A stretch of 64,000 nucleotides of DNA from a virus. The notes under the pieces were generated by a model, which was not told the DNA's origin, ran no database searches, and saw only the letters and a list, made by a program, of their open reading frames with translations. A program made the position numbers and the translations under genes. Location of the stretch: IMG/VR virus record IMGVR_UViG_3300042868_005520, positions 1 through 64,000 of that record. The stretch is one strand, 5' to 3'. Positions 5,076 to 46,508 of the stretch are shown here, one piece after another (positions within the stretch are counted from its first letter, which is position 1; each line of letters begins with the position of its first letter).

Positions 5076-5103
5076 ATAATTAGTCGCAAAGGAGTAGACA
5101 CAT

Positions 5104-6029: not shown

Positions 6030-6066
6030 GTAGTCTACATATTTCCAACGAAGGAGATTCACAGTC

Positions 6067-7251: not shown

Positions 7252-7294
7252 ACCACAGTCACAGACTGTTTAACAGTTTCAAGGAGATACTAAC

Positions 7295-19033: not shown

Positions 19034-19034
19034 A

Positions 19035-19988: not shown

Positions 19989-20233
19989 TGGCACGGAATC
20001 GCAGCGTAAAAAAAGGCAGAGTCTTCAAAGATTTCAAGGACAGGCGTGAGTATCAGACTGCGTTGACCCCTGATGATTTTCCTGATCCCCCGTATTACTC
20101 CATAATGCCTAAAGAAATACGGCAAATGATGAAACAGGATATTACCCGTTTGACAAGGGTTCAACTAGATGAACTGTTCCGCATCAGCAAGCAGTACAGA
20201 AAAGAATATAACCGCAGAAAGAGTAGCCGATGA
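19988..20233 (+). CDS. Small basic hypothetical protein
   Basis: TAATG/ATGA coupling to gp44 and gp62. Confidence 0.6.
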   Translation: MARNRSVKKGRVFKDFKDRREYQTALTPDDFPDPPYYSIMPKEIRQMMKQDITRLTRVQLDELFRISKQYRKEYNRRKSSR

Positions 20234-20622
20234 CTCACACCCTGAGTGATTATTTAAATGCCATCAATGTTTCAAAGGATCCGCTACTAGACAGTAGCGA
20301 GTCTTACACGAAGCAGTCGTATCCACCGTTCGTGGTTACCCGTTGCCTGTCGTATTTCCCCGATACCCTGTTCGCGGCAAACGAGATGAATACTCGTCCC
20401 CTTATAGATTCAAAAATGCACTTTGACTTCCTGCGGGGAGCAGTTCGTCCCCGTAAGCGGTTCTCCAAATGGCTAAAGCGGGAAGACGATAGTCGTGTGG
20501 CGGCTCTAGTGGAGTACTACGGTATATCTTCCCGCAAGGCGCGAGAAGCCCTGTCTGTGCTGTCCGAAGCCGATCTAGAGGAGATTGTTGCCGCTGTGGA
20601 TAAAGGTGGACGAAGCAAATAA
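20230..20622 (+). CDS. gp62: Clamp loader small subunit
   Basis: YPPFVV.RCLSYF.DT...ANEMN, RKRFSKW, YYG.S..KA.EAL. Confidence 0.95.
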   Translation: MTHTLSDYLNAINVSKDPLLDSSESYTKQSYPPFVVTRCLSYFPDTLFAANEMNTRPLIDSKMHFDFLRGAVRPRKRFSKWLKREDDSRVAALVEYYGISSRKAREALSVLSEADLEEIVAAVDKGGRSK

Positions 20623-20670
20623 TCTAAATACTTCCATGTGCGGTTCCGAATTATCAGGAGTGAGCAGAAC

Positions 20671-21108
20671 ATGGAAGCAGATGAACGATATATTGATCTT
20701 GAAACCACTGATCTGCTAGAGATCAGTCTACAGAAACCCGATGACTTTCTTAAAGTCCGTGAAACCTTGACGCGTATTGGCGTGTCGTCTCGCGCAGAAA
20801 AGAAGTTGTGGCAATCATGCCATATTCTGCACAAGAAGGGTAAATATTACATTGTGCATTTCAAGGAAATGTTTGCCCTAGACAGTTTGCCTACCTCCAT
20901 AAATAGTGAGGACATTGGACGGCGTAACACCGTTGCGTGTCTCCTTGAGGAGTGGGGGCTGATTAAGATCGTGGACAAAACCAAGATTACAGAAAAAGTG
21001 CCACTCAACAAAATAAAGATCCTTCCATTCAAGGAGAAGGGTGAGTGGGAATTGTGTCCTAAATATCACATCGGTCGTTCCAAGAAGAACATCAAGACCG
21101 AAGAGTAG
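20671..21108 (+). CDS. regA: Translational repressor RegA
   Basis: DDFLKVRETLTRIG, QSCHILHK.GKYYIVHFKE.FALD motifs. Confidence 0.97.
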   Translation: MEADERYIDLETTDLLEISLQKPDDFLKVRETLTRIGVSSRAEKKLWQSCHILHKKGKYYIVHFKEMFALDSLPTSINSEDIGRRNTVACLLEEWGLIKIVDKTKITEKVPLNKIKILPFKEKGEWELCPKYHIGRSKKNIKTEE

Positions 21109-21126: not shown

Positions 21127-21834
21127 ATGAGCAGACTTGTGATCAAGTTCCCTACGCGGAACCGACCTGAAAAATTCAAAACCGTCTTTTCCCGCTACCT
21201 CACCTTCTTGAGTGGACGGCATGATGTTCGTTTCATCCTGTCAATGGATGAGGATGATCTCACCATGAATAATCCTGAAATGCACCAGTGGATTTCCACT
21301 CGTGCAGAGAACGCACAGATTGAGTGCTTCTACGGGAACTCTAAGTCCAAGATTGAGGCTTGCAATGCCAACCTAGAGGGTGTTGACGGCGATGTACTGC
21401 TGTTGGCATCAGATGACATGGTGCCCGTGCAGATGGGATACGATGATATAATCTTTGGTGCTTTCTCTCAAGCCTTTCCTGACTTTGATGGTGCAATCAA
21501 GTTTTGGGATGGTCTGCGTCCAAAGGAAGACCCGCTGATGACTCTCACAGTCATGGGCTTCCCCCTGTACAAGCAGTTCGGATACATTTACAATCCTGAG
21601 TACAAGTCTCTGTACTGCGACAACGAGCAGACACAGGTTTGTGCTGCGCTGAACAAGTTGCGCCGTTGCGACCTGTGCATTATTCAGCACCAGTGGACGG
21701 GTGAGCCATTCGACACCCTCCACGCTCGTAACGAAAACGCGGAGATGTACGGGGTGGACGGTGAAACATTCAAGCGCAGAGGCGCAAATAAATTTGATAT
21801 GGAGGAAATGTTCAATGCCAGTATCAGCAAGTGA
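21127..21834 (+). CDS. Glycosyltransferase (GT-A fold)
   Basis: KFPTRNRP, D.DD, LASDDM DxD motif, YCDNE. Confidence 0.75.
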   Translation: MSRLVIKFPTRNRPEKFKTVFSRYLTFLSGRHDVRFILSMDEDDLTMNNPEMHQWISTRAENAQIECFYGNSKSKIEACNANLEGVDGDVLLLASDDMVPVQMGYDDIIFGAFSQAFPDFDGAIKFWDGLRPKEDPLMTLTVMGFPLYKQFGYIYNPEYKSLYCDNEQTQVCAALNKLRRCDLCIIQHQWTGEPFDTLHARNENAEMYGVDGETFKRRGANKFDMEEMFNASISK

Positions 21835-22453
21835 AATCAAGTTCAGCATCCTGATGCTGTCCATTCCCGAACGCATCGAATCCATGACCGCTGCGGTGAA
21901 GCATCTACAAGAGCAAGCCGATGCTGTAGGACAAGGCAAGGCGGTAGAGATTCTTGTGCTGTTGGACAATCGCTCCAAGAGCATTTCCGAGAAGCGTAAT
22001 GACCTCCTGCAAATGGCACGGGGTAAGTACATTGCGTTCTTGGACGATGACGATGCAGTCAGCAAGGACTACATGAGTAAGATCCTGACCGCTATTGACC
22101 AAAACGATGTTGACTGCATCTCATTCAACCAGTGGTGCAGCATCAACGGCGAACCAATGGATGTGGAGTTCGGCATCGGAAATCCCCACGGGCAGTTGTG
22201 GCGGGACGAAGACGGCTTCCTTGGTGACATCAAGCGTCCACCGTACCATATGTGCCTGTGGCGCAGTGATATTGCCAAGAGTGAATCTTTTAATCCTGTA
22301 TATGGAGCCAACGGGCAGTCTTCGGAAGACATTGATTGGCTCATGCGCCTGTACCCCAAGATTCAGACGGAACATCACATTGATGACTCGTTGCACGGGT
22401 ACATCTATAGTTCCGAGACAACCACCTCCCTTGTTCCACAGGAGCAGCAATGA
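21815..22453 (+). CDS. Glycosyltransferase family 2
   Basis: SILM.SIP.R, KRN.LL..ARGKYIAFLDDDD, ED.DW motifs. Confidence 0.85.
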   Translation: MPVSASEIKFSILMLSIPERIESMTAAVKHLQEQADAVGQGKAVEILVLLDNRSKSISEKRNDLLQMARGKYIAFLDDDDAVSKDYMSKILTAIDQNDVDCISFNQWCSINGEPMDVEFGIGNPHGQLWRDEDGFLGDIKRPPYHMCLWRSDIAKSESFNPVYGANGQSSEDIDWLMRLYPKIQTEHHIDDSLHGYIYSSETTTSLVPQEQQ

Positions 22454-23142
22454 AAGTAATATCGTTCAGCCTGTGGGGCGACAAGCCCACATACACCGTT
22501 GGTGCGGTCAAGAATGCCGATCTTGCGGCTACGCTGTTTCCTGATTGGACTTGTATGTTCTACTGCTTTAGTTCTGTTCCAAAAGAAATAATTGCAGAAC
22601 TACAATCCCGTAAGAATGTGATTGTACGGATGATAGACGGTGATTATAATTCGGAAGACAGCCGTGGTATGTTCCACCGATTCCTTCCCGCTGATGAAGA
22701 AGGCGTAGAGTACATGATGTCCCGTGACACAGATTCCCGTCTATCCGAGCGTGAGCGGCTTGCTGTTGAAGAGTGGTTGGCTAGTGGAGCCGATCTCCAT
22801 GTTATGCGTGATCATCCGTATCACGGTGCGCCAATACTTGGTGGTATGTGGGGGGTTAAGGGCGGAAAACTCAAGGGTATTGCTCGTGACATGGAAGAGT
22901 TTCAGCCAAGCAGCGATAAGGGACAAGACCAGTCTTTCCTGTGGGAATGGGTGTGGAGCAAGGTTACTGATGATGAAATCACCTGCTGTGTACACGATCC
23001 ATTTTTTCAGAAGGCTCCGTTCCCTACTGGTGCTACTCGTGGAGAAACCAATGGTGGAGTGTGGTTCGTAGGACAAGTCTTTGACGAGAACGACAAATAC
23101 AATAGTGAACAGGACACAAATTTGGTTAGAGATATCCTATGA
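22450..23142 (+). CDS. Glycosyltransferase-like protein
   Basis: ISFSLWG..P.Y..GA..N, RD.DSR, MRDHP.H..PILGGMWG, DQ.FL motifs; island context. Confidence 0.65.
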   Translation: MKVISFSLWGDKPTYTVGAVKNADLAATLFPDWTCMFYCFSSVPKEIIAELQSRKNVIVRMIDGDYNSEDSRGMFHRFLPADEEGVEYMMSRDTDSRLSERERLAVEEWLASGADLHVMRDHPYHGAPILGGMWGVKGGKLKGIARDMEEFQPSSDKGQDQSFLWEWVWSKVTDDEITCCVHDPFFQKAPFPTGATRGETNGGVWFVGQVFDENDKYNSEQDTNLVRDIL

Positions 23143-23510
23143 AAATTGAAGTATCAAATGGTGAAATAGCAGACAAGGTTTCTATTTTGATGATAAAGAA
23201 AGAACGCCTTATTGACGACAGCAAGATCATAAATGTATCAAAAGAACTAGAGGAGATTACTCCTGATTTTTTGATAATAATGAATTTTGATCACCCTCTG
23301 TATCTTGAACTCAAACAAGTAAATTCTTCTCTTTGGGATATAGAAGATCAAATTCGTGATAAAGAACGAGTAAAACTTTTTGACGATGAGTTTGTCTCTC
23401 TTGCTAGAGCAGTATACTTTATAAACGACAAAAGAGCAGAAATAAAGAAGACAATAAACACTATTACGGGATCTTCTTTGACTGAAGAAAAGTCCTATGC
23501 CAAATATTGA
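23139..23510 (+). CDS. DUF6165-like protein
   Basis: SNGEI.DK.SIL.IK, LWDIED.IR, LARAVY..ND.R..IK..IN...GS.L.EEKSY. Confidence 0.8.
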   Translation: MKIEVSNGEIADKVSILMIKKERLIDDSKIINVSKELEEITPDFLIIMNFDHPLYLELKQVNSSLWDIEDQIRDKERVKLFDDEFVSLARAVYFINDKRAEIKKTINTITGSSLTEEKSYAKY

Positions 23511-24192
23511 TGTGAATCCAAATACACTATATGTTCACCATCATCTTGGTCTAGGTGACCATATCATTTGCAATGGTCTTGTCCGATTCCTGTTGAAACA
23601 AACCAATGCTAATGACCTTTGGTTGGTGGTGAAACGCAAAAACTTCAATAATGTCTCTAGAATGTTTTTGGACGATTCTCGCATCAAGTTTATACCCGTT
23701 GACGAGGATAAGAATTTCTACGAACTTCCATTAGAATGGTCTAATGTTCGTTTGGCTAGAATTGGATTTGAGCGATGCCGAGAGACAGATTTTGATGTTT
23801 CATTTTATGACTCCACAGGAATCCCTTTCACGGAAAGATGGAATTCTTGGTACTATCAGCGAGATTTAGAATGTGAACAAACGATGATGCAGGAATTGTT
23901 ATTGCCTGAAAAGTTTGTGTTGGTTCACGATACTTCTAGTGTTGGTATTTTTGATCTAAAGATCAATACCAATTTACCTGTGATTCGTGTTTCGCGTTTG
24001 AACAGTGAGAAAACCATGTTTGATTGGATTGGTGTTATAGAACGAGCAACTGAAATACACTGCATAGATTCGTCTTTCATTCATCTAGTGAATTCTGTTG
24101 ATTTGGTAACCGACTCTTTGTTCTATCACAAAATAAAGTCAAGCAAGATGCAGATTTGTTTTCGTAAAAATTGGTCTGTAATAGAATATTAG
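23497..24192 (+). CDS. Glycosyltransferase-like protein (GT9/GT-B-like)
   Basis: HHHLGLGDHII.NG and EIHCIDSSF motifs. Confidence 0.6.
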   Translation: MPNIDVNPNTLYVHHHLGLGDHIICNGLVRFLLKQTNANDLWLVVKRKNFNNVSRMFLDDSRIKFIPVDEDKNFYELPLEWSNVRLARIGFERCRETDFDVSFYDSTGIPFTERWNSWYYQRDLECEQTMMQELLLPEKFVLVHDTSSVGIFDLKINTNLPVIRVSRLNSEKTMFDWIGVIERATEIHCIDSSFIHLVNSVDLVTDSLFYHKIKSSKMQICFRKNWSVIEY

Positions 24193-24204
24193 GAATATGT
24201 TTTT

Positions 24205-24948
24205 ATGAATAGTAGAATCAATGTATTGATCCCTATGGCTGGTCGTGGAGAACGATTTTCTTCCGTGGGTTATGATCTTCCAAAACCATTAATAGAAATT
24301 AATGGACGACCCATGATAGAATGGGCATTGCGTAGTTTAGATGTGGATTTTTACCTACACAATTTTATTTTTGTTGTACGAGACTATCAGAATGATGAAA
24401 TCAACAATCGGATTGCATCAGTTCTAACCTGTCTTGTGCCAAACAATAAAATTGTAAAAATTGATTATGTCACGGAAGGACCAGCGTGTACTTGCTTGCT
24501 TGTTCGTGATATGATTGACAACGATTCTCCTCTTATGGTTGGAAACTGCGATCAAATTATGAGATGGAATGGATCATACTTTGTAAGCAGTTGTTTAAAT
24601 TCTCCATATGATGGAGTAGTGGTTACCTATGATGAAAGCACTCCAAAAAATAGTTACGCCAAATTGAATTCTCGTGGAGATGTGATTCGAATCGAAGAAA
24701 AAAATGTCATAAGCAATGTGTCTTTGAATGGTATACATTTTTGGAAACACGGTTCGGATTTTGTTAGTTCTGCGGATTCCATGATAGAAAGTAATGAGCG
24801 GTATAACAATGAATTTTATGTTGGACCAACATATAACCACATGATCAAGACGGGAAAGCGAGTTGGCATTTTTCACATACCACGCGAATGTCATAATCCA
24901 GTCGGTGTTCCGAGTGATCTTGGAGACTTCTTGGAAAAAAATAAATGA
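24205..24948 (+). CDS. Sugar nucleotidyltransferase, BcbE-like
   Basis: IPMAGRGERF...GY..PKPLI.I.G.PMI, TEGPA.T, N.DQ, EK.VIS, NNEFYV.P.YN, G.P.DL. Confidence 0.85.
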   Translation: MNSRINVLIPMAGRGERFSSVGYDLPKPLIEINGRPMIEWALRSLDVDFYLHNFIFVVRDYQNDEINNRIASVLTCLVPNNKIVKIDYVTEGPACTCLLVRDMIDNDSPLMVGNCDQIMRWNGSYFVSSCLNSPYDGVVVTYDESTPKNSYAKLNSRGDVIRIEEKNVISNVSLNGIHFWKHGSDFVSSADSMIESNERYNNEFYVGPTYNHMIKTGKRVGIFHIPRECHNPVGVPSDLGDFLEKNK

Positions 24949-25274
24949 AGAAATATAAACTTAAAGATATGCATAGAGGATGGTTAATTGGTGATTTTGA
25001 ACCGTCTGTGCTAAGGACGCAAGATTTTGAGGTGGGTGTTCTCACTCACAAAAAAGGCGAACATTGGGATGAACACTATCACAAGATAGCAACCGAAATC
25101 AATGTGTTGGTTGAAGGAAGTATGACGATAAACGGCATACATATAGAGGTTGGAGACATCTTTATCATTGAGCCAAACGAATCCTCTGCTCCAATTTTTC
25201 TAGAGGATTGTAGAGTGCTGTGCGTGAAAACCCCTTCTGTGATTGGAGATAAATATGCAACTATTCGTGAATGA
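24945..25274 (+). CDS. Cupin-domain protein
   Basis: GW.IGDFEP, HYHKIATE.N...G.M, GDIF...P cupin motif. Confidence 0.8.
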   Translation: MKKYKLKDMHRGWLIGDFEPSVLRTQDFEVGVLTHKKGEHWDEHYHKIATEINVLVEGSMTINGIHIEVGDIFIIEPNESSAPIFLEDCRVLCVKTPSVIGDKYATIRE

Positions 25275-26448
25275 GTCTGCACTTGACAGCGAAAAGTATT
25301 TCGTAGTCACCTACAAGTTGGAGTCCGACAAGAACCTACGCGATGCCGCTTGGAACATTGCCATCGGTCAGAGTGTTGGTAATCCAAATGTGCGGAACCG
25401 TTGGGAGACAGAGGATTTGTTTAAGAATCACTCTTGTCTAATACTCGCTGACGAGATTGAACTACAGAACAAGACATCAGGAGAAGTCAAGATTGCGTTC
25501 CCCGTGATCAACACTGATTGGGAAACAGATGGAATCAGCCATCTGCTGTGTCAGATCATGGGTGGTCATGTTGATATTGACTTGGTGAAGAAGTGCCGCG
25601 TAGTCAAGTTGGATCTTCCACAAAGTGTTACCAAGCACTTCGCAGGACCAAAGTTTGGCATCAGTGGTATGAGGAAGTTCACGGGTCAGTACGAAAAGCC
25701 ACTGCTTGGCGCGATCATCAAGCCCAAGATCGGTATCACTCCAGAAACCCTGTTGGACATGGTTAAAGAACTCGTTGATGGCGGAGTTGACTTCATCAAG
25801 GAAGACGAGATCATGTCAAATCCGTCTTTCTGTCCACTAGACAAGCGTGTGCACATGATTTCAAATTATCTGCGCTCACAATCTCGTAATGTAGTATTTT
25901 GTCATACCATCAACTGTGATCCGCACATTCTTGCGGGTCGTGTTTGCAGAATCCACTCCCTTGGCGGAAACGGTGTACACATCAATGTGTGGAGCGGATA
26001 TGGTGCTTACAACAGCATTCGAAAACTAGATCTTCCAATCTACCTGCATTTCCAAAGCAGCGGTGCAAAGGTTGCGACAAGCGTAAACAATCAGTTCAGT
26101 ATTAGTTGGTCTGTGATTTGTCAGTTGGCTACTCTCATGGGTGTAGACACCATTCAGACAGGAATGGTGGGAGGTTACAGCAATGACGATCCTCAAGAAA
26201 TACTTGAGTGCATCAAGGTGCTACGAGAAGGAAACACAGTTCCTGCACTCAGTTGTGGCTTGCATCCAGGATTGGTTGACAAGATTACATCTCTTGTCGG
26301 AAATGACTATCTTGGGAATGCGGGTGGAGCCATTCACGGTCATCCAAACGGAACATTGTCTGGTGCGAAAGCGATGCGACAATCCGTTGATAAGACATAC
26401 GGAACAGAATATACACACGCAATTGAAAAGTGGGGAAAGATACTATGA
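25255..26448 (+). CDS. RuBisCO-like protein (form IV, RLP)
   Basis: GPKFGI.G.R, IIKPKIG, GGVDFIKEDE (Lys201/Asp203/Glu204 equivalents), SCGLHPG, GGAIHGHP.G...GA.A.RQ; GGAG RBS. Confidence 0.93.
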   Translation: MQLFVNESALDSEKYFVVTYKLESDKNLRDAAWNIAIGQSVGNPNVRNRWETEDLFKNHSCLILADEIELQNKTSGEVKIAFPVINTDWETDGISHLLCQIMGGHVDIDLVKKCRVVKLDLPQSVTKHFAGPKFGISGMRKFTGQYEKPLLGAIIKPKIGITPETLLDMVKELVDGGVDFIKEDEIMSNPSFCPLDKRVHMISNYLRSQSRNVVFCHTINCDPHILAGRVCRIHSLGGNGVHINVWSGYGAYNSIRKLDLPIYLHFQSSGAKVATSVNNQFSISWSVICQLATLMGVDTIQTGMVGGYSNDDPQEILECIKVLREGNTVPALSCGLHPGLVDKITSLVGNDYLGNAGGAIHGHPNGTLSGAKAMRQSVDKTYGTEYTHAIEKWGKIL

Positions 26449-27065
26449 AGTGGAAAGAAGATTTGACTCACGACATTAGATTTGGTTCGGTTGTAGACGA
26501 TATTGACCACCCAATTCCTGAATTGGGATTGAAACCAGCAAGCCCTCCTGCTGAATTCACAGATGATAATCATGCGGCTATTCAAAAGGCTATAGATCGG
26601 TGCAAGAATAAGCCAAAGACATTCCTAGAAATAGGTGTCTGTAGAAACGGTCATCATTCATCGACACACACCATATTTAAGAATCTTCCGAGTGATGGAG
26701 TTTATCTTGGAGTTGATCTTGATGATAAAACCTTCCTAGACAACAAAGAAAATGGAATTCATACTATAAAAACATCTTCTTCCAACTACGAAGAAGTAGT
26801 ATCTAAATTGAAATCTCTTGGTGTGGATAAGTTGGATTTTATATTTATAGACGGATGGCACAGTATCAATCAGGTTTTATCTGATTGGGAATACACCAAT
26901 CTTCTTTCTGATGGCGGTGTTGTTGCTTTACACGATACTACTGCTCATCCTGGTCCTTTCTTCTTTATGAAATTTTTGAATAGATCCACATGGGAAGTGC
27001 ACCCTAATCTGTGTCCAAACGATCACGGTTTGGGGTATTGCTTGAAGAATCAGGATACAAAATGA
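26445..27065 (+). CDS. Class I SAM-dependent methyltransferase (Methyltransf_24-like)
   Basis: FLEIG, FIFIDGWHS, L..GGVVALHD motifs. Confidence 0.82.
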   Translation: MKWKEDLTHDIRFGSVVDDIDHPIPELGLKPASPPAEFTDDNHAAIQKAIDRCKNKPKTFLEIGVCRNGHHSSTHTIFKNLPSDGVYLGVDLDDKTFLDNKENGIHTIKTSSSNYEEVVSKLKSLGVDKLDFIFIDGWHSINQVLSDWEYTNLLSDGGVVALHDTTAHPGPFFFMKFLNRSTWEVHPNLCPNDHGLGYCLKNQDTK

Positions 27066-28060
27066 TAAAGGTTCTATTTGTTACTGCGGTTGGAAATGCC
27101 AAATCATATGACTACTTAACAGATGGTATTCTTCACGGACTGAAGACTCGAAAAGATAAGTTTGATGTATATGAGTGCTTTGGTATGAAGCATCTGTATA
27201 AAAATTATCCAACTGATGATAGTCCTGCTTTGTTCGGTAGAAGAAATCTGAATGGTGGACCAAACGAACTAGGTTTGGGTCTGTGCATCAAGATGGTTGC
27301 TGACAAATTTTTTGATGTGATTGTTTTTGATTGGAGAACATCGAGCAATTTTTGGAACAATCATGGGCATTGTCCGTATTGGAAAGAAACAGTTGCAATA
27401 CAAAATGTTGCATTCTCTGCATATCCAAAAGAGAAGATTGTATTCTTGGATAGTAGCGATGACAATGTTGGGAAGTATGAGATGTTTACTCAACCGTTTG
27501 TTGGTAAATCAACATACTTCAAACGAGAATTGTATATTGATGATCCATACTTTCATCCCATAGACATACCTTTTGCTGCGGAAAAGGGAAGCCCTTTGAT
27601 TTTGTCTAATTCTAAAGACAAGTATCTATCCCATGTAATACCAGAAAAAAAAGATACCTATATTTTTAAAGATGAATCTTCTTATTATGGAGATTACGCA
27701 AAGTCTTATTTCGGGGCAACATGGAAAAAGATTGGTTGGGGATGCTATCGCCATTCCGAGATCGTGTTTGCTTCATGTGTTCCTTTGTTTCCAGATATTA
27801 CTCACTGCCCTATGCGAACACTGACTTTTTTTCCAAAAAGCCTTTTTCAAGAGGTTCTTAATCGCGGTGTGTTGCGTAATACCGCCACAAAGGTACAGAA
27901 GTATTCGGATATGTACACTTATGAAAACATTGAAATTAACGAATCTGCTATTGACAAGTCCTGGTATGATGATATTCTTTACCAAGTATATGATCACGCT
28001 CACAAAAATCTCACCACTACAGCAATGGCAGATTATGTTCTGTCTAAACTAGACATATGA
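27062..28060 (+). CDS. Glycosyltransferase-like protein (GT-B)
   Basis: DYL.D...HGL, YFKREL, YY.DY..S.FG.T.KK.GW.C.RH.EI....C.P motifs; context. Confidence 0.6.
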   Translation: MIKVLFVTAVGNAKSYDYLTDGILHGLKTRKDKFDVYECFGMKHLYKNYPTDDSPALFGRRNLNGGPNELGLGLCIKMVADKFFDVIVFDWRTSSNFWNNHGHCPYWKETVAIQNVAFSAYPKEKIVFLDSSDDNVGKYEMFTQPFVGKSTYFKRELYIDDPYFHPIDIPFAAEKGSPLILSNSKDKYLSHVIPEKKDTYIFKDESSYYGDYAKSYFGATWKKIGWGCYRHSEIVFASCVPLFPDITHCPMRTLTFFPKSLFQEVLNRGVLRNTATKVQKYSDMYTYENIEINESAIDKSWYDDILYQVYDHAHKNLTTTAMADYVLSKLDI

Positions 28061-28878
28061 AACAATCAATTGTATTTCGCGGTAGTATATGCAATGACCG
28101 ATACAAGACTAATTTTTTGAAAGACTCTGTTTCGGAACTGCGTAAATGGTTTTTTGGTGAAATCATAATTTCTACATGGCATGGTCAAGAAGAAAATGCC
28201 AATTGTATCAGTGGTGTTGATAAGATTGTTTACACTCAAGACCCCGAATCGGGATTGGTTGCACATAATCGGAGGCAGCATATTTCGTTCAGAGAAGGAG
28301 TAAAGGCTAGTTCTGGCGATGTTGTTTTTGTGACACGAACAGATTGTCTTCTGACGAAGGATCCATTTTATTTAATGGACTGCAATCAAGATCATGATAC
28401 TCGTTTTCGTTTTGTTAGCAGAAGAATGGTTGCTGGAAACATGATGACATTTTCCCCAAACCAAGGTTCTTCTTCTAGTGAAAAGTGGGACGGCTATTTT
28501 AGACTGGGAGATTGGTTTCATATGGGAATGCGTAAAGACATTCTTTTGTGGGGAGATGTTTTAGAATTTTCAGAACAGTTAAATGCAGATGTGAATGGAA
28601 TACAGACACCGAATCGTTCGGTTGAACAGTTGTGGCTGATGTCTGCCATAAATAAATACAGCAAAGACAAGATAGATTTGCAGAAATATCAGTTTATGGA
28701 TGTATATGATGCATGGGCTGGAATTCTAAATAATTTTAGAGTAGTCAATACCCGATCCACTGCGGGAGTACACAACTTAAACTGGAATCATAAGTCCGAG
28801 TTTCATCCTCTGTATGTGACAGAGGATGAATACAATACTGCTTTTTTAAATCGTTATGGAACTATCATAAAAGGATAA
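28057..28878 (+). CDS. WavE-like polysaccharide biosynthesis protein
   Basis: IVFRG.I, EIIISTW, N..RQ..S...G, RTD, D.F..G, EQ motifs. Confidence 0.65.
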   Translation: MKQSIVFRGSICNDRYKTNFLKDSVSELRKWFFGEIIISTWHGQEENANCISGVDKIVYTQDPESGLVAHNRRQHISFREGVKASSGDVVFVTRTDCLLTKDPFYLMDCNQDHDTRFRFVSRRMVAGNMMTFSPNQGSSSSEKWDGYFRLGDWFHMGMRKDILLWGDVLEFSEQLNADVNGIQTPNRSVEQLWLMSAINKYSKDKIDLQKYQFMDVYDAWAGILNNFRVVNTRSTAGVHNLNWNHKSEFHPLYVTEDEYNTAFLNRYGTIIKG

Positions 28879-28880
28879 TC

Positions 28881-29801
28881 GTGGAAACCAAAGACTTCCT
28901 GTTTTTCAACTATTCGTGGGTGGTTAACTCTACTTTCTACTTTGAGTCCTTTGCCAAGAAAGGACACAGCATAGACATTGTTACAGAAAAAGATCTCCAT
29001 TCTTTTGTTCCGCAGAACAAGTACAAAAATGTTGTGCTATATCTCCATGAACCGTGGAGTCTTCCTATAACTGATCACCTAATAAACACATACTTCAACG
29101 ATGCTGTTTTGATTCAGCATGATGATACGGATTTTGAAGATGTTCAATATTGGAGCACTCGCGTTCCTGATCTGGTGATGCAGAGGGAATATACAGACAA
29201 TACTAAAAATCCTCGTGGTTCTGCTATGGGTGCTTTCCATTTCCCCATTCATTCGTGGTACAATCCGTCCATAACAGAAAAACCGTATGATCTGTGCTTC
29301 CTGGCAAACATGACGCATCCTAGACGAGTCATGTTTGCCAGGAAGATGATGGAGTTGATGAACGGTAGACTAAATCATTTGGTTTGGAAAGTAAACATAG
29401 AACCTCATGTGAATACATCTTCTCAGTTCTACAATAAGAATGCCTTCAGTGAGCAGAAGGAAGACACAAAGATAATTGTTAACAAGACCAAGATTGGACT
29501 GAACGATTTTGGAAATTCTTATGAACAGTGGAGAACATGGGAATACGCAAGTGCTGGTACGGCAATACTTATGCCAAAGATGAAAACCAAGTGTGTATCA
29601 GAAGGCTTTATGCCTTTCAACGAATACACTGTATTTCGTGATGATTACTCTGATTTGGAGGAGAAGATACTTTTCCTGCTAGAAAACAATCGGTATATGG
29701 AATACGGCACGATGGCTAAAGAAGCCTATGATAAAAGACACAATCCCGAAAAGTGTTTTGAGTTTTATTACGAGCAAATTATGAGGTATGCCAAACAATG
29801 A
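28881..29801 (+). CDS. Glycosyltransferase (GT1-like/CgeB-type C-terminus)
   Basis: KIGLN..G......RTWE....G..ILM, DLEEKI..LL C-terminal domain. Confidence 0.65.
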   Translation: METKDFLFFNYSWVVNSTFYFESFAKKGHSIDIVTEKDLHSFVPQNKYKNVVLYLHEPWSLPITDHLINTYFNDAVLIQHDDTDFEDVQYWSTRVPDLVMQREYTDNTKNPRGSAMGAFHFPIHSWYNPSITEKPYDLCFLANMTHPRRVMFARKMMELMNGRLNHLVWKVNIEPHVNTSSQFYNKNAFSEQKEDTKIIVNKTKIGLNDFGNSYEQWRTWEYASAGTAILMPKMKTKCVSEGFMPFNEYTVFRDDYSDLEEKILFLLENNRYMEYGTMAKEAYDKRHNPEKCFEFYYEQIMRYAKQ

Positions 29802-30238
29802 ATATCATTTCTCATCGTGGAAATCTATATGGACGAGATCCTTCACAGGAAAACTCTACACAGTATATTCAAAAAGCACTTGAACACGGATTTGATGTTG
29901 AGATAGATGTTTGGTATAACACCGATCTAAAGCAGTTTTATCTTGGACATGATATGCCAACATATTCCGTGACAACTTCTTTTTTAAAAATTGATAGGTT
30001 GTGGTGTCATGCTAAAGATGAAGAATGTTTTTCTAAACTTCTTGATCTTGGGGTGAATTGTTTTTGGCATGAAAATGATAGATTTACACTTACATCACAC
30101 GGCATTGTTTGGTGCTATCCCAACAATTGGTGTGAGCGAGGAGTAACCGTGGTTTTTGATCCACCTTCATCTGAAATACTTTCAAAAAACATTTTTGGTA
30201 TATGTGTTGATGATCCTGTGAATTGGAGAAAAATCTAG
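29798..30238 (+). CDS. Glycerophosphodiester phosphodiesterase-like protein
   Basis: IISHRGN..G, EN, GFDVEIDVW, LGHD, LWCHAK, FWHE.D..TLTS, GIC.D. Confidence 0.8.
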   Translation: MNIISHRGNLYGRDPSQENSTQYIQKALEHGFDVEIDVWYNTDLKQFYLGHDMPTYSVTTSFLKIDRLWCHAKDEECFSKLLDLGVNCFWHENDRFTLTSHGIVWCYPNNWCERGVTVVFDPPSSEILSKNIFGICVDDPVNWRKI

Positions 30239-30852
30239 TGAAACCATTTATAGTATCATCTCATTACAATGAGGATTTGTCTTGGATTGTGCATCAAACA
30301 GAGTACAATTATAAGATATACACAAAGAATCACAATCCATCAGATTTCATTCCGAAAGACAAGATTGTTTACATTCCCAATAAAGGGAACGAAGCGTCTT
30401 CTTATTTGTGGTATATCATAAACAACTACGATTGTCTTCATGAGAGCGTTGCTTTTGTTCATGGTCACTATACGGCATGGCATCAGAATATGGACATTCT
30501 GACCGCTATAAGAAAATACGATGGCTCGGATTACATGACTCTGAATGATCTTTCGCGGAGAAATGTGTTTCACGATAATTGTGGGATAGAAGGAAACGCT
30601 ATAGGAAATTGGAATTGGGCTAGGCAAGGCATGATTGAGATTGGTATGGAAGTTCCTATTCCAACAAGACTCGAATTTACTCAGTGTGCTCAGTTTGTTG
30701 TTACAGCCAGCAGGATACGGTGCAATAGTTTGAATTTCTATAAGCGTTGTATGGATTGGTTGATGAGGACTCCATTTCCTGACGCTATCTCTGGTAGAGT
30801 TTTTGAGCATATCTGGCATTACATAATGACACACAAGGAAATTGAAAAATGA
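30238..30852 (+). CDS. DUF3431-like protein
   Basis: S.YNEDLSW, PNKG.EA..YL.YII.NYD.L, F.HGH...WH, AQF.V, FE..WH; GTG start with GGAG RBS (track starts at 30223). Confidence 0.75.
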   Translation: MKPFIVSSHYNEDLSWIVHQTEYNYKIYTKNHNPSDFIPKDKIVYIPNKGNEASSYLWYIINNYDCLHESVAFVHGHYTAWHQNMDILTAIRKYDGSDYMTLNDLSRRNVFHDNCGIEGNAIGNWNWARQGMIEIGMEVPIPTRLEFTQCAQFVVTASRIRCNSLNFYKRCMDWLMRTPFPDAISGRVFEHIWHYIMTHKEIEK

Positions 30853-31943
30853 TGTATGACTATATGATCGTTGGTTCTGGTCTATTTGGGGCAATATTTG
30901 CCAGACAGATGACTGATGCGGGTGCACGGTGTCTTGTTGTAGACAAACGCAAGCATATTGGTGGAAACTGCTATACCCGTAACGAAGGTGGAATTCATGT
31001 TCACGAATACGGTCCACATATATTTCATACGAGCAGTGACCGCGTATGGGAATACATGAATCGGTGGACTCGGTTCAATCATTTTGTGTATCGCCCCCGT
31101 GTCATTCATGGAGACAACCTATACTCGTTCCCCATCAACCTGTTTACACTATATCAGTTGTGGGGGGTAAAGACACCTCAAGAAGCACAAAACAAATTGG
31201 CTCAAGTGCGGCTCACCATTCCATCCCCGTCAAACCTAGAAGAATGGGTACTGTCCCAAGTGGGAGAAGAAATTTACGAGAAGTTCGTGAAGGGCTACAC
31301 CATGAAGCAGTGGAACCGCGATCCCAAGGATCTTCCTGCGTCCATCATCAAGCGACTTCCCATTCGGCTCACTTATGATGACAATTACTTTGATGACAAG
31401 TATCAAGGTATACCTGTCGATGGATACACGCCCATCTTTGAAAAACTATTGAGTGATATTCCCGTTGAAACAAGTGTAGACTATCTTAAAGATCGTGAGC
31501 GTCTTGAGAATATGGCAAAAAAGATTGTATACACGGGAGCCATAGACGAATTCTTTGGCTGCGATCTAGGCAATCTTGAGTGGAGAAGTCTGAGGTTTGA
31601 ACATCAGACACTTCAGATTCCTGACTATCAGGGAGTAGCAGCAATAAACTACACCGATGCCACGATCCCATATACTCGCGTGGTGGAACACAAGCATTTC
31701 ATATTTGGAAAACAGGATCATACTGTCATCACCCACGAGTACCCACAGAATTGGGATAACACAAAGGAAAAGTTTTATCCAGTGACTGACGATAGAAATA
31801 ATGAACTGTATATTCAGTATAAGAATAGGATTGACACCGAGAGATACATATTCGGTGGTCGTTTGGCGGATTACAAATATTACGATATGCACCAAGTTGT
31901 AGGGTCTGCCCTAACACGCAGTGAAAAGGAAATTGAAAGATGA
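30849..31943 (+). CDS. glf: UDP-galactopyranose mutase
   Basis: IVGSGLFG FAD motif, HIGGNCY, YGPHIFHT, KYQGIP..GY, GRLA.YKYYDMHQV. Confidence 0.96.
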   Translation: MMYDYMIVGSGLFGAIFARQMTDAGARCLVVDKRKHIGGNCYTRNEGGIHVHEYGPHIFHTSSDRVWEYMNRWTRFNHFVYRPRVIHGDNLYSFPINLFTLYQLWGVKTPQEAQNKLAQVRLTIPSPSNLEEWVLSQVGEEIYEKFVKGYTMKQWNRDPKDLPASIIKRLPIRLTYDDNYFDDKYQGIPVDGYTPIFEKLLSDIPVETSVDYLKDRERLENMAKKIVYTGAIDEFFGCDLGNLEWRSLRFEHQTLQIPDYQGVAAINYTDATIPYTRVVEHKHFIFGKQDHTVITHEYPQNWDNTKEKFYPVTDDRNNELYIQYKNRIDTERYIFGGRLADYKYYDMHQVVGSALTRSEKEIER

Positions 31944-32881
31944 AAGCATTAGTAACAGGTGGAGCGGGTTTTATTGGATCGAATTTGGTTGATCGGCTAA
32001 TTTTGGAAGGTCACGAAGTCACAGTGATAGACAACGAATCATCTGATGCCCATGATCACTTCTATTGGAATTCAGCAGCAAAAAACTACAAGTACGATAT
32101 CAATGATTACACGATGGTTCGTGAATTGTATGAAGGAATAGACATGGTGTTCCATTTTGCTGCTGAGGCTCGTATTCAGCCGTGCATTGTTGATCCACTA
32201 AAGGCTGTGAAATCCAATATGCTTGGTACTGCTAGTGTGTTGCAGTGCGCTCGTGTATGCGGTGTAAAGCGTGTCATCTATTCATCCACATCATCCGCTT
32301 ATGGACTGAAGAATACTCCTCCTCTTGTTGAGACAATGCCAAACGATTGCCTTAACCCATACTCGGTGACCAAGACAGGTGGTGAGGAATTATGTAAAAT
32401 GTTCTCCAAACTGTACGGCTTAGAGACAATCATATTTCGATACTTCAATGTGTACGGAGAGCGTCAGCCACTGCGTGGACAATATGCTCCAGTGATTGGC
32501 ATCTTCTTGCGTCAACGGGCAGCAGGAGAATCCATGACCATTGTTGGTGACGGAGAACAGAGGAGAGACTTCACCCATGTTAGCGATGTGGTTGAAGCCA
32601 ATATCAAGGCTTCTCAGTTTATTGCTCCTCGTTATAATATTACCGACAATGGCTCGTGTCAGACTTATCGAGGATGGGAATGGGGTCAGATTTACAATAT
32701 TGGAACAGGAACCAATCATTCAGTGAATGAGATTACTGCATTTATGGGTGGTCAAACTGTAAATATTCCTCCACGCGCAGGGGAATCCCGAATCACTCTT
32801 GCTAATGCAAATAAAGCAAAGGAACATCTTGGATGGATTCCCCAAGTTCGTCTTGAAGAGTGGATTGCCAAGCATAAATAA
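31940..32881 (+). CDS. NAD-dependent nucleotide-sugar epimerase/dehydratase
   Basis: TGGAGFIGS, SSTSSAYG, YSVTK (YxxxK), RYFNVYG, GDGEQRRDF. Confidence 0.95.
   Translation: MKALVTGGAGFIGSNLVDRLILEGHEVTVIDNESSDAHDHFYWNSAAKNYKYDINDYTMVRELYEGIDMVFHFAAEARIQPCIVDPLKAVKSNMLGTASVLQCARVCGVKRVIYSSTSSAYGLKNTPPLVETMPNDCLNPYSVTKTGGEELCKMFSKLYGLETIIFRYFNVYGERQPLRGQYAPVIGIFLRQRAAGESMTIVGDGEQRRDFTHVSDVVEANIKASQFIAPRYNITDNGSCQTYRGWEWGQIYNIGTGTNHSVNEITAFMGGQTVNIPPRAGESRITLANANKAKEHLGWIPQVRLEEWIAKHK
32873..32880 (+). promoter_or_regulatory. Putative late promoter CATAAATA before GT2-TPR gene
   Basis: One mismatch from T4 late box TATAAATA; AAGGAG RBS follows. Confidence 0.6.
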
Positions 32882-32901
32882 CCGTACAAGGAGATCGTGA
32901 A

Positions 32902-34110
32902 ATGTCTACAGTATGCCTCTCAATGATCGTTAAGAATGAAACGCACATTATCCATGAATGCCTCAATTCAATGTGGCAAAACATTGACTATTGGGTGATC
33001 GTGGACACAGGATCCACAGACGGAACCCAAGACCTTATCCGCACCTTCTTTGCAGAGAAGGGAATTCCTGGCGAACTCATTGAGAAGCCGTGGGTAGACT
33101 TTGGCTACAACCGTAGCGAAGCCCTTGCTCTCTGTGATGGCAAGGCAGACTACGCTTGGATGATTGATGCCGATGACAAGATCACAGGCAATTTTGTGTA
33201 TCCCAACGGCAAGAATCTCGTGCACGATGCGTATGCTCTCAAGTGTGGACGAGACGGATGCGTGTGGTGGCGTAATCAAATCTTTAAAACGGGTATTGGT
33301 TGGAAGTATGTCGGCGTTCTCCACGAGTACGCCCATTGCGAAAAGCAGCCACTAAATCAATTCCGTATTGAGGGTGATTATGCTCTTGAGGCGCGTACAC
33401 TTGGTGCGCGTAATGTAAATATTACACAGGTAGAGAAGTACACAAAGGACGCAGAGATGCTGCTCAAGGCTCTAGAAACAGAGCCAACGAATTCTCGCTA
33501 CCAGTTCTACCTTGCTCAGTCGTACTTTGACTCACAGCAGTGGGACAACGCCATTGCAGCGTACTACAAGCGCGTAGAGATGGGTGGATGGGAAGAAGAG
33601 TGCTACTACTCCTTGTTCCGCATTGCCCTGTGTGAAATCTCAAAGAATTCTGATTGGTCAATTGTTCAGCAGAAATTCCTTGACTCGTATGACTACCGTC
33701 CGTGCCGCGCAGAACCGCTTCACGCCATTGCCAGATTCCTTCGCATGAACGGTCGTCCACGCGCTGCGTACCTGTTTGCGAAGGAAGCCGCGCAGTTGCC
33801 GTACCCACAGCAGGACATTCTCTTCATTGATACAAATGTGTACAAGTGGATGGCATTGGATGAACTAGCCGCTACGGCATTCTTTACCCACGATTTCAAG
33901 ATTGGCTACTCCGCTTGCGAAACCCTGCTAAAGCAGAGCCGCTTGCCAGAGAGTGAAATTGAACGAGTTCAGAAGAACCACGCTGCGTACCTTGAGAAAG
34001 TCAAGGAAGTGGATGCACTGACACAGAAACTCGCCAAAGACACCAAGATGCCCCCGCTTGCTCCCGTGCTAAATACAAAGCAGCACACCTTTAAAAAGCG
34101 GAGAAAGTAA
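32902..34110 (+). CDS. Glycosyltransferase family 2 with TPR repeats
   Basis: LSMIVKNE...I..CL.S, VDTGSTDGT, IDADD, GVLHE; C-terminal helical repeats (FYLAQSY, AIAAY). Confidence 0.9.
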   Translation: MSTVCLSMIVKNETHIIHECLNSMWQNIDYWVIVDTGSTDGTQDLIRTFFAEKGIPGELIEKPWVDFGYNRSEALALCDGKADYAWMIDADDKITGNFVYPNGKNLVHDAYALKCGRDGCVWWRNQIFKTGIGWKYVGVLHEYAHCEKQPLNQFRIEGDYALEARTLGARNVNITQVEKYTKDAEMLLKALETEPTNSRYQFYLAQSYFDSQQWDNAIAAYYKRVEMGGWEEECYYSLFRIALCEISKNSDWSIVQQKFLDSYDYRPCRAEPLHAIARFLRMNGRPRAAYLFAKEAAQLPYPQQDILFIDTNVYKWMALDELAATAFFTHDFKIGYSACETLLKQSRLPESEIERVQKNHAAYLEKVKEVDALTQKLAKDTKMPPLAPVLNTKQHTFKKRRK

Positions 34111-34535
34111 TGGCATCAGGATACTACGATATTAACGCACAGCAGTACTCCACATTTAATTTTCATGTGGAGTATTACGACGAGAACGGCAATCGCGTAG
34201 ACTTAACCAATTACACCGCACGATTCCATGTGCGTCCGTTTGCCAATAGTTCGGTGAAGTACATGGAGATTAGTACTTCGGGTGTTACTAGTGGTGGTAT
34301 CACAGGTGAGTACACAGGCACTGCTGGCATTAGCGGAGCGGGTCGAGTCTACATGAACAAGGGCGAGACGGGTGCGGCTCTCACGGGAGGCATTCTTATT
34401 ACTGCCGATGCCACCACAATGGGATACATTCGAACAGGCTCGTGGAAGTACTCTATTGATCTTGTTCAAAGCGGTGTAACTACCGATGAATTGCTGTACG
34501 GTCAATTCATTGTTACTCCCAAAGCCACGAGATGA
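34110..34535 (+). CDS. Hypothetical, probable virion beta-sandwich (BppU N-terminal-like)
   Basis: VDLTNYTARFHVR, Y.I.L, LL.G.F.V.P pattern; CTAAATA at 34069. Confidence 0.5.
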   Translation: MASGYYDINAQQYSTFNFHVEYYDENGNRVDLTNYTARFHVRPFANSSVKYMEISTSGVTSGGITGEYTGTAGISGAGRVYMNKGETGAALTGGILITADATTMGYIRTGSWKYSIDLVQSGVTTDELLYGQFIVTPKATR

Positions 34536-34747
34536 GAATAAAGGTTTTTGAAACTGCCTACACAGTAAAGCCCAAACAAAAAAAGGGTAAACTTGTGGCT
34601 CCTGCGTATACGGTGGGGGTTAAACCAAAACCTGGTGGTGTGGTTTTGAATTTATCAAAATACGACCGCGTGGTAAAGACAGATCGTAGTCTTGGTGTGA
34701 TTATTCAAAAAATCAAGAACACCAAAATTATCAAGCAGTGGGATTGA
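34532..34747 (+). CDS. Small basic hypothetical protein
   Basis: ATGA overlap; internal AYTV..KPK repeat. Confidence 0.5.
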   Translation: MRIKVFETAYTVKPKQKKGKLVAPAYTVGVKPKPGGVVLNLSKYDRVVKTDRSLGVIIQKIKNTKIIKQWD

Positions 34748-34771
34748 CTCCTCTCTGAGTTGTGCTATACT
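34744..34771 (+). promoter_or_regulatory. Sigma70-like promoter for dUTPase-gp43 block
   Basis: TTGACT-16 nt-TATACT with extended -10 TG. Confidence 0.7.
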
Positions 34772-34791
34772 CCTCTCTAGGAGATTTCATT

Positions 34792-35298
34792 ATGAGTACT
34801 GAGACGCTAGGCATTTATATTATTCCCGATTCGGGAGCAGAACTTCCTCAATTCTCAACCGAAGGGTCTGCTTGCTTTGATGTGTGCGCTCGTCTGTGGA
34901 AATCAACAATTGCATATGGTCCTCAAAATGTTCGTGTAGAGATTGACTGCACGGATGGATATGTTGATATTCCTTGTGGATGGCGTGTGCTTGTCCCCAC
35001 AGGGATTGTAATGGACATCCCCAAGGGATTCTCTGTGCGTCTACACTCTCGTAGTGGACTTGCCCTGAAGGAAGGGCTTATCCTTGCAAACGCAGAAGGT
35101 GTAATCGACTCAGACTACACAGATGAACTCATGGTTATGGTTACCTCTATTAGTGGAGGAATCATTACTGTTAATGATGGAACTAGAATTTGTCAAGGCG
35201 AACTAGTTCGTAATCAACCCGTTGCCTTTACTCGCAGTGAATTCCCACCCCAACAAAAAACCGACCGCGTTGGCGGATTCGGTAGCACAGGAGTATAA
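34792..35298 (+). CDS. dut: Trimeric dUTPase
   Basis: SACFD, RSGLA, GVIDSDY, RICQG, R.GGFGSTG motifs I-V. Confidence 0.96.
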   Translation: MSTETLGIYIIPDSGAELPQFSTEGSACFDVCARLWKSTIAYGPQNVRVEIDCTDGYVDIPCGWRVLVPTGIVMDIPKGFSVRLHSRSGLALKEGLILANAEGVIDSDYTDELMVMVTSISGGIITVNDGTRICQGELVRNQPVAFTRSEFPPQQKTDRVGGFGSTGV

Positions 35299-35299
35299 C

Positions 35300-35701
35300 A
35301 TGACACGAGACGAACTACTAGCATTTCACGCAGAACTCTGCACCGAAGCCCGTGATCTGATGAGCCTAAAGAACCGCGACTACGCTGGCAAGGAAGGCAC
35401 AGAGCCGTTTGCCAACTTTACCCGCGTGGAGTCAATGGGCATCTGCAAGACCGAACAAGGTTTCATGGTGCGCCTTACCGACAAGATGAGCCGCCTGTCT
35501 TCCTTTGTACACGCAGGAAAAATGAATGTACAGGACGAGTCATTTATGGACACCTGTGTGGATGTAATTAATTATATGGTTTTACTTGCTGCATACTTAA
35601 AGGATAAAGAAGCGCAGAAGCAAGACGCTCCCACAATCAAATATACAAGCACACCGATTCCTGTTGATTTAAATATAGGTGGTGGTAAACTAGGGGCATG
35701 A
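35300..35701 (+). CDS. Nucleotide modification-associated domain 1 (Nmad1/DUF1599-like, MazG-like fold)
   Basis: KN.DYA, PFANF, VRL.DK.SRL, ES..DT..D..NY motifs. Confidence 0.8.
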   Translation: MTRDELLAFHAELCTEARDLMSLKNRDYAGKEGTEPFANFTRVESMGICKTEQGFMVRLTDKMSRLSSFVHAGKMNVQDESFMDTCVDVINYMVLLAAYLKDKEAQKQDAPTIKYTSTPIPVDLNIGGGKLGA

Positions 35702-37447: not shown

Positions 37448-37460
37448 TGTGAGGTGTGCC

Positions 37461-39266: not shown

Positions 39267-39274
39267 GGACACCA

Positions 39275-46500: not shown

Positions 46501-46508
46501 ATACGGGG

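Follow-up and report, generated by a model that had tools for sequence, protein, structure and literature searches.

Which glycan a phage could build with 17 consecutive genes, and to which acceptor this glycan would be attached, are the questions raised by positions 21127–34110 of the IMG/VR virus record IMGVR_UViG_3300042868_005520. The record is linear, 113,197 bp long and about 62% complete according to CheckV; the window analysed here is its first 64 kb, and the genome-wide negative results given below cover the 113 kb, with about 38% of the genome missing. The source genome is that of an uncultivated, distant T4-like phage. Genes of the tail sheath, portal, scaffold and major head proteins (gp18, gp20, gp22 and gp23 in the window) were found at 595–8749, gp45, gp44, gp62 and regA at 18296–21108, directly upstream of the glycan island, and gp43, encoding a product 47% identical to cyanomyovirus polymerases, at 39242–41830, followed by UvsX-like and gp41-like genes; the structural and replication genes are all located on the + strand. 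The island itself consists of 17 consecutive + strand open reading frames (ORFs), designated O1–O17 in their order and packed tightly with no spare room. Its gene content indicates that it builds a complex glycan wholly with soluble cytoplasmic enzymes, including enzymes for its own sugar donors and a conserved cassette centred on a RuBisCO-like protein (RLP).

The gene starts of the island were refined using homologues and the first in-frame ATG. With the refined starts, neighbouring genes overlap by 4 nt at nine of the 16 junctions and are never more than 20 nt apart, and the region 21127–34110 therefore reads as a single translationally coupled operon. An earlier sequence-only reading of the window had placed 17 contiguous, mostly overlapping genes in the regA–gp43 interval, and the ORF layout and the flanking genes confirm this. 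No further glycan genes are present in 34110–39241, between the island and gp43; the genes located there are unrelated to glycans, so the island boundaries as first proposed are right. Nucleotide searches with the island against 50,697 GenBank phages gave no matches.

No membrane helix was predicted in the 17 island proteins (no hydrophobic 19-residue window above 1.6), and Pfam searches of the 113 kb revealed neither a priming transferase of the WbaP/WecA type (no Bac_transf or Glycos_transf_4 match) nor a Wzx-type flippase (no Polysacc_synt match). The earlier statement that no flippase, polymerase or obvious membrane protein is encoded thus held in both the hydrophobicity scan and the Pfam search; the priming transferase and the flippase, polymerase or transporter that mark Wzx/Wzy- or ABC-dependent O-antigen and capsule clusters were not found. 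As for the donors, family membership suggests that host UDP-glucose would be converted to UDP-galactose by the GalE-like O16 and then to UDP-galactofuranose by O15. The latter scored above the equivalog cut-off of TIGR00031 (359.7 bits vs 303.75), and the best NCBIfam match of O16, galE, was below its cut-off (154 bits vs 262). Since O15 is a true UDP-galactopyranose mutase, the galactofuranose that had been read into the glycan is a reasonable inference.

A second donor pathway would be supplied by the RLP cassette. The RLP O8 appears to belong to the phage 'Form IV-like' clade, as judged by its fold, its relatives in 178 IMG/VR contigs and homologues from Beckwithbacteria/Patescibacteria with 50–51% identity (the homologues recovered from candidate phyla radiation (CPR) genomes are L086 and L087). 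It lies below all NCBIfam RuBisCO/RLP equivalog cut-offs (form III, 185.9 vs 497; MtnW enolase, 161.4 vs 409; OiaX, 151.1 vs 700), KPK and KEDE are kept without change in 12 phage RLP sequences, and tblastn searches with the RLP against the 50,697 GenBank phage records found none. Among the 80 best viral loci with RLP, the gene for the O6-type nucleotidyltransferase is near the RLP gene in 76, the O13-type miniature phosphodiesterase in 69, the O7-type cupin in 54 and the O9-type methyltransferase in 28; the gene order varies and the membership is kept, which is the signature of a functional unit. The similarity of O6 to heptose-pathway (HddC-type) nucleotidyltransferases is weak (E ~1e-3). 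The O7 profile matched PDB cupins (7.7e-6) and M6P-isomerase-type proteins (4e-4), with a conserved HxHx4E motif, and O9 matched Methyltransf_24 above the cut-off (E 3.9e-6) and RMNT_CmcI (E 2e-4). A profile of O13 built with 34 homologues matched the catalytic N-terminus of glycerophosphodiester phosphodiesterases (GDPD) (E 6e-4); E18, N19, E35, D37, H51 and D52 are invariant and H6 and R7 nearly invariant, so that the catalytic N-terminal motifs of GDPD are kept in a protein of only ~140 residues.

The same linkage was found in bacteria, including Pelagibacter, Verrucomicrobiae, Planctomycetes, Bacteroidota and CPR genomes; the bacterial contexts were annotated by Pfam at two loci, of which the one from Verrucomicrobiae was uninformative. 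At the other, in the complete SAR11 chromosome of Candidatus Pelagibacter sp. Uisw_094 (L083, 700–12000), an RLP 58% identical to O8 is surrounded by two nucleotidyltransferases (one fused to a HAD domain), GT9, 2-hydroxyacid dehydrogenase, CMP-Kdo-synthetase-like, SIS and PfkB genes, a neighbourhood that resembles a region of lipopolysaccharide (LPS) core synthesis. Cultured cyanophages possess the O6-type nucleotidyltransferase and lack the RLP. In Synechococcus phage S-SKS1 (L093, 6001–7428), it is the N-terminal half of a coding sequence (CDS) annotated as 3,4-dihydroxy-2-butanone-4-phosphate (DHBP) synthase, and in S-CAM9 (L092, 5350–6735) it is the C-terminal half of a 461-aa CDS, with a HAD hydrolase two genes downstream; a HAD–nucleotidyltransferase fusion was confirmed only in the Pelagibacter locus. 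Both cyanophage clusters contain glycosyltransferases and a transaldolase, and that of S-SKS1 also a phosphoheptose isomerase. In the related contig L079, the tblastn range of the RLP match (10001–11188) contains four in-frame stop codons, which could reflect a pseudogene or a change of frame within the match.

Judging from the families, the probable substrate is a ketose phosphate, which the RLP and the cupin would isomerise or enolise before O6 activates the product as a nucleotide sugar. O6, O7, O8 and O13, with or without O9, would make and activate an unusual, possibly methylated, sugar. The RLP-derived unit and the methylated sugar of the sequence-only reading are supported insofar as the RLP is tied to a sugar-activating enzyme and a sugar-type methyltransferase is present.

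Seven glycosyltransferase-like proteins were inferred in the island, namely two GT2 (O2, O17), two GT-A-like (O1, O3), one GT9-like (O5) and two GT-B (O10, O12) proteins; together with the WavE (O11) and DUF3431 (O14) proteins they would assemble the oligosaccharide. The previously listed gene inventory, with its approximately seven glycosyltransferases, was borne out by the family matches and by two structure models. Assignments at curated thresholds were obtained for O2, O4, O6, O8, O9, O11, O12, O14, O15, O16 and O17. NCBIfam gave no name to O1, O3–O5, O7 and O9–O14, and single-sequence PDB searches of O3, O10 and O13 revealed nothing usable, O10 and O13 requiring profiles or structure models. 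O1 has no Pfam match and is kept beside regA in the related contigs L002, L003 and L079. O3 has no sequence match in Pfam, PHROG or PDB, and its look-alike atlas clusters are hexosyltransferase/glycosyltransferase at 0.99 and GT8/Nucleotid_trans at 0.92; both O1 and O3 are probable GT-A enzymes. All detectable GT2 genes of the 113 kb fall within the island.

O5 has at least 952 homologues, which are unannotated and fall into no Pfam family. Its AlphaFold 2 model (predicted local distance difference test (pLDDT) score 95) gave the best Foldseek matches with the GT9 structure 3tov (8e-6), WaaC (5e-5) and the protein heptosyltransferase TibC (2.6e-4), and this confident model supports a GT9-like fold. 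O5-like domains are also found in Nucleocytoviricota protein clusters, fused to or paired with DUF6165 (the family of O4) and GNAT domains, which suggests that the O4/O5-type pair is a conserved two-part unit. For O10, whose homologues are also 332 aa long and lack a Pfam family, a GT-B fold is supported by a confident AlphaFold 2 model (pLDDT 84, predicted template modelling (pTM) score 0.86), with Z-scores of 14–15 against many GT4-type enzymes and a tie between PimA, BH4-glucosyltransferase, T4 alpha-glucosyltransferase (AGT), BshA and the HY126 transferase (14.0–14.2 for T4 AGT and 13.3–13.6 for the HY126 transferase). The DUF3431 protein O14 has a counterpart in none of the 80 related viral loci and appears to have joined the island last. 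For O17, the NCBIfam family that matches best is SunS peptide S-glycosyltransferase, below the cut-off (E 1.1e-9); in L002, L003, L005 and L079 the island ends on the right with O17, the nearest cultured homologue of which, in Tunturiibacter phage Tunturi_5, has an uninformative gene context. The features of the locus are listed in Table 1.

Table 1. Island genes, promoter-like motifs and neighbouring genes (window positions).
Feature	Coordinates	Strand	Assignment and evidence
O1, 235 aa	21127..21834	+	Putative GT-A-type glycosyltransferase; phrog_14945 glycosyltransferase E 6.6e-7 (weak)
O2, 212 aa	21815..22453	+	GT2; Glycos_transf_2 E 1.6e-9; phrog_8858 E 4e-33
O3, 230 aa	22450..23142	+	Probable nucleotide-diphospho-sugar (GT-A-like) transferase; lead-level evidence
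O4, 123 aa	23139..23510	+	DUF6165; PF19662 E 2.2e-14; GC 0.32
O5, 231 aa	23497..24192	+	Compact GT9-like (heptosyltransferase-fold) glycosyltransferase, predicted
O6, 247 aa	24205..24948	+	Sugar-1-phosphate nucleotidylyltransferase; NTP_transferase; phrog_3980 E 2e-57; PDB 4evw E 1.6e-16
O7, 109 aa	24945..25274	+	Metal-binding cupin; phrog_24762 E 2e-36
O8, ~397 aa	25255..26448	+	RLP, phage 'Form IV-like' clade; RuBisCO_large E 4.7e-37; PDB matches
O9, ~206 aa	26445..27065	+	S-adenosylmethionine (SAM) methyltransferase, CmcI/rhamnosyl O-methyltransferase type
O10, 332 aa (start M18)	27062..28060	+	GT-B fold (GT4-like) glycosyltransferase, predicted
O11, 273 aa	28057..28878	+	WavE family (LPS-core synthesis); PF07507 E 1.4e-11, above cut-off
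O12, 306 aa	28881..29801	+	GT-B-type glycosyltransferase; Glyco_trans_1_2 PF13524 E 2.6e-6, above cut-off
O13, 146 aa	29798..30238	+	Miniature GDPD-like phosphodiesterase; phrog_34507
O14, 209 aa	30223..30852	+	DUF3431; PF11913 E 7.2e-33
O15, 364 aa	30849..31943	+	UDP-galactopyranose mutase (Glf); GLF E 1.1e-74; NAD_binding_8 and GLF domains
O16, 313 aa	31940..32881	+	NAD-dependent sugar epimerase/dehydratase, GalE-like SDR; Epimerase E 1.4e-55
O17, 402 aa	32902..34110	+	GT2 with TPR repeats; Glycos_transf_2 E 3.3e-10; TPR_17; phrog_13126
CTAAATA motif	20624..20630	+	gp62–regA spacer; T4 late-type -10 variant; kept in L002, L003, L072
CTAAATA motif	21059..21065	+	62 nt before the O1 ATG, in the regA 3' end
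CATAAATA motif	32873..32880	+	22 nt upstream of O17
CTAAATA motif	34069		
dUTPase	34762–35298		Between island and gp43
UvdE	35698–36630		Between island and gp43
Destabilase-like lysozyme	36618–37055		Between island and gp43
N6/N4 DNA methyltransferase	38057–39016		E 1.1e-53; directly upstream of gp43

The composition of the island is mosaic. The guanine–cytosine (GC) content is ~0.49 in O1–O3 and O17, 0.32–0.39 in O4–O7 and O9–O14, 0.46 in the RLP gene and 0.44 in the genes of Glf and the epimerase, compared to a window average of ~0.46. In related contigs from other samples, regA, O1–O2–O3 and O17 are kept at the ends of the locus and the middle differs: L002, with an RLP 94% identical to O8, is without O9 and O14, L003 contains only O1–O3, the cassette and O17, and, taken together, L002, L003, L005 and L079 share regA, O1–O3 and/or O17 and differ in O4, O5, O9–O12 and O14–O16. 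The locus is thus a stable landing site, where a conserved backbone (O1–O3, O17) surrounds a low-GC core (O4–O14) that is fast-changing and horizontally acquired. Assembly chimerism, named earlier as an outcome that would overturn the reading of the island, was considered and rejected: the independent contigs L002 and L003 show the same synteny at the outer as well as the inner junctions. Location between core modules, variable content and a combination of glycosyltransferases with nucleotide-sugar enzymes, the three features of the glycan islands of aquatic T4-like phages, are all present here.

The time of expression was approached through promoter-like motifs. The T4 late promoter consensus TATAAATA is absent from the + strand, and the motifs quoted in the sequence-only reading as late promoters, TCTAAATA at 20624 and CATAAATA at 32873, belong to the [C/A]TAAATA class. 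CTAAATA, which differs from the T4 consensus by a C in place of TA, has 29 copies in the genome, 15 of them no more than 60 nt upstream of a same-strand start, vs ~5% expected; examples are found at window positions 2602, 5072, 10324, 20624, 34069, 55883 and 60031. Since it is enriched before gene starts, including those of gp19 and the gp21–gp22–gp23 block, CTAAATA is probably a late promoter of this phage; the late promoters of T4 consist of a lone -10 element of this type. ATAAATA by itself is not enriched, and it is kept before the O17 homologues of L002, L003 and L005 despite different upstream genes. Together with the motif kept before regA in L002, L003 and L072, this gives the promoter reading good support from comparison. 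The less certain motif at 21059 is kept in L002, L003 and L079 but coincides with conserved Pro-Lys-Tyr codons. A scan for sigma-70-type promoters gave hits at chance level, terminator-like sites were weak, and strand bias is unusable for timing because structural and replication genes are both on the + strand. Thus, the late-promoter claim stands insofar as the motifs are of the T4 late type, conserved and members of an enriched class, and fails insofar as they are not the T4 consensus; transcription of the island would proceed at least partly from T4 late-type promoters.

Most likely, the oligosaccharide would be attached to a protein synthesised in the infected cell, probably one of the structural proteins of the virion, and the TPR-bearing GT2 enzyme O17 would recognise it; such a system would work in the manner of giant viruses and mycobacteriophages, which glycosylate proteins in the cytoplasm with enzymes of their own. 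The late-type motifs speak mildly for a protein acceptor, as do the GT2–TPR, SunS-like composition of O17, the giant-virus kin of O4 and O5 and the presence of TibC among the matches of O5. The size and self-sufficiency of the system are also unlike those of known phage O-antigen modifiers, and O4/O5-type proteins occur in Nucleocytoviricota, viruses of hosts without LPS. Several observations weigh against this assignment. The island lies 12 kb from the head genes and adjoins no structural gene. O17 matches SunS at a score far short of the family cut-off, TPR repeats are generic features, the late-promoter reading of [C/A]TAAATA rests on T4 similarity and position, coding constraint may account for the conservation of the motif at 21059, and the phage is uncultivated. 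Moreover, GT9, WavE and GT2 are classic families of LPS and lipid-linked glycan synthesis. On balance, glycosylation of a virion protein is a tentative assignment, with a chance somewhat short of even, and the fuller picture, where a host-independent cytoplasmic machine coats the phage's own virion proteins with an oligosaccharide of galactofuranose and an RLP-made methylated sugar, is possible but rather doubtful.

Downstream in the window, the gene at 46395–48170 encodes a tail-fibre-like protein, rich in GDK/GxK and GxQ, in which residues 181–345 form 55 collagen G-X-Y triplets without interruption. By analogy with the collagen-like glycoproteins of Bacillus spores and Mimivirus, this protein is a conceivable glycosylation target.

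The sequence-only reading had concluded that the glycan is built on soluble acceptors rather than exported as O-antigen, and this was not established: the missing flippase is non-diagnostic, because soluble or peripheral GT9, WavE, GT2 and GT4 enzymes extend LPS-core or lipid-linked intermediates and the host exports the products. LPS-core assembly requires no phage-encoded membrane protein. The island could therefore serve to remodel the host envelope, its soluble transferases adding sugars, on the cytoplasmic side, to lipid A-core or undecaprenyl-linked intermediates of the host, with export by host MsbA, Wzx or an ABC transporter; the altered surface of the infected cell might, for example, block superinfection or stop progeny from adsorbing to debris. 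The LPS-core affinities of WavE and of the GT9-like fold agree with such a role, as do the GT9, CMP-Kdo-synthetase-like, SIS and PfkB neighbours of the Pelagibacter cassette and the clustering of the cyanophage O6 relatives with phosphoheptose isomerase and transaldolase, and host O-chain modification is the published interpretation of the glycosyltransferase islands of pelagimyophages and cyanomyophages (PMC7029224). Known phage modules for O-antigen modification, however, are small and include membrane proteins, none of which is found here; late-type motifs precede both the island and O17, the turnover of surface LPS is slow relative to a lytic cycle, and relatives of O4 and O5 occur in giant viruses of LPS-free hosts. 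To our knowledge, no experiment has shown an envelope-remodelling role for a lytic T4-like phage. Altogether, we consider remodelling of the envelope a serious candidate, albeit an unlikely one.

Alternatively, the transferases might glycosylate a hydroxylated or hydroxymethylated pyrimidine of the phage DNA. The DNA glucosyltransferase genes of T4 are located in the same replication-gene neighbourhood, and the model of O10 has T4 AGT and the HY126 DNA transferase among its best GT-B matches, but tied with transferases that do not act on DNA. T4-like phages do glycosylate their DNA; besides T4 itself, the precedents include RB69/DLP3 (polyarabinosyl-5-hydroxycytosine) and RL38J1 of Pootjesviridae (a galactose-initiated hexose chain on 5-hydroxycytosine), which encodes Glf and for which synthesis of UDP-galactofuranose has been proposed (PMC13326640). 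The usual partner genes were not found here: with 38% of the genome missing but the replication module complete, the 113 kb gave no ThyA-family hydroxylase/hydroxymethylase, no C5-methyltransferase and no match to a Tet/JBP dioxygenase, the Tet_JBP control profile having matched nowhere either. A ThyA-family gene is also absent in three of the four CheckV-complete phage genomes with the RLP cassette, the phage has an ordinary dUTPase and an N6/N4 DNA methylase, and nine transferase-like genes exceed the needs of any known DNA glycan; hypermodification of DNA seems very improbable. It is also conceivable that the genes have accumulated without a common product, the modules serving separate ends (nucleotide-sugar pools, small modifications) and some being decaying cargo. 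The mosaic GC content and the fast change of content among close relatives (loss of O9 and O14 in L002, reduction in L003) would fit such an accumulation. Yet all 17 frames are intact and translationally coupled, relatives carry the cassette, O1–O3 and O17 together at this locus, and the balance between donor-making and transferase genes is that of a single pathway; this explanation seems improbable, if less so than the one involving DNA.

Glycosyltransferase-rich hypervariable islands have been described in pelagimyophages and cyanomyophages (Zaragoza-Solas et al. 2020, PMC7029224; Sullivan et al. 2010, PMC3037559). Like the island considered here, they belong to aquatic T4-like phages, occupy a plastic region between core modules and contain many LPS-type transferases and sugar-nucleotide enzymes; unlike it, they are located in the 'host recognition cluster' of tail-fibre genes rather than between regA and gp43, and the present island is further set apart by its RLP cassette, its fully soluble enzymes and its late-type motifs. 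The 'Form IV-like' RLPs of phages and Beckwithbacteria were reported by Jaffe et al. 2019 (PMC6389311), the phage sequences coming from myovirus contigs; in the accessible part of that report, carboxylation is not expected, a link to host carbon metabolism is suggested, and neither a function nor a gene context is given for the phage RLPs. O8 appears to belong to the same clade, and here the RLP is locked to a nucleotidyltransferase, a cupin and a miniature GDPD in a glycan operon. The gene clusters with which Straboviridae and Pootjesviridae glycosylate their DNA (Lee et al. 2026, PMC13326640), among them the alpha- and beta-glucosyltransferases of T4, share with the island a T4-like background, GT-B enzymes, a nucleotidyltransferase for the phage's own donor and, in RL38J1, Glf; in contrast, their ThyA-family 5hodCMP/5hmdCMP synthase and linked nucleotide kinase were not found here, where transferases are far more numerous.

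Closer parallels to the proposed cytoplasmic glycosylation of protein are offered by giant viruses, the capsids of which are glycosylated by virus-encoded cytoplasmic enzymes (PMC9614988). They also make their own nucleotide sugars, use soluble transferases without membrane export and share DUF6165, O5-like and GT8-like clusters with the island; unlike it, they have eukaryotic hosts and a proven capsid or fibril acceptor, and no RLP is noted in the accessible portions of these accounts (PMC9614988, PMC7826918). Bacterial LPS inner-core synthesis (WaaC/WaaF of GT9, WavE) likewise relies on soluble or peripheral enzymes at the cytoplasmic face, and O6 is weakly HddC-like; however, Kdo and lipid A genes are absent from the island, and the predicted GT9-like protein O5 is shortened and comes from a large family that is mostly viral and has no Pfam entry. 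The O-glycosylation of mycobacteriophage virions is mentioned in PMC11256854. In work attributed to Freeman et al. in 2023, it reportedly employs one to three transferases encoded beside capsid or tail genes and host donors. There, as would be the case here, phage transferases modify virion proteins in the cytoplasm, but the present system comprises 17 genes with its own donor pathways and is remote from structural genes.

Both the glycan islands of aquatic T4-like phages and the phage RLP clade are thus already known from publications, and this locus is distinguished by its full solubility, its own donor pathways, its late-type promoters and its RLP cassette. Such islands make up several percent of many aquatic T4-like phage genomes, none with a demonstrated product or target, and a compact, fully soluble, donor-making island is a good candidate for heterologous reconstitution. 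It makes two questions testable, namely which reaction is catalysed by the phage RLP and whether the lytic phages that infect Gram-negative bacteria place glycans on their own particles rather than on the host surface; either answer bears on phage–host recognition, on evasion of defence and on the reading of 'auxiliary metabolic genes' in metagenomes. If an RLP-made sugar is indeed carried by the virions, the RuBisCO fold would gain a biosynthetic role in the formation of nucleotide sugars.

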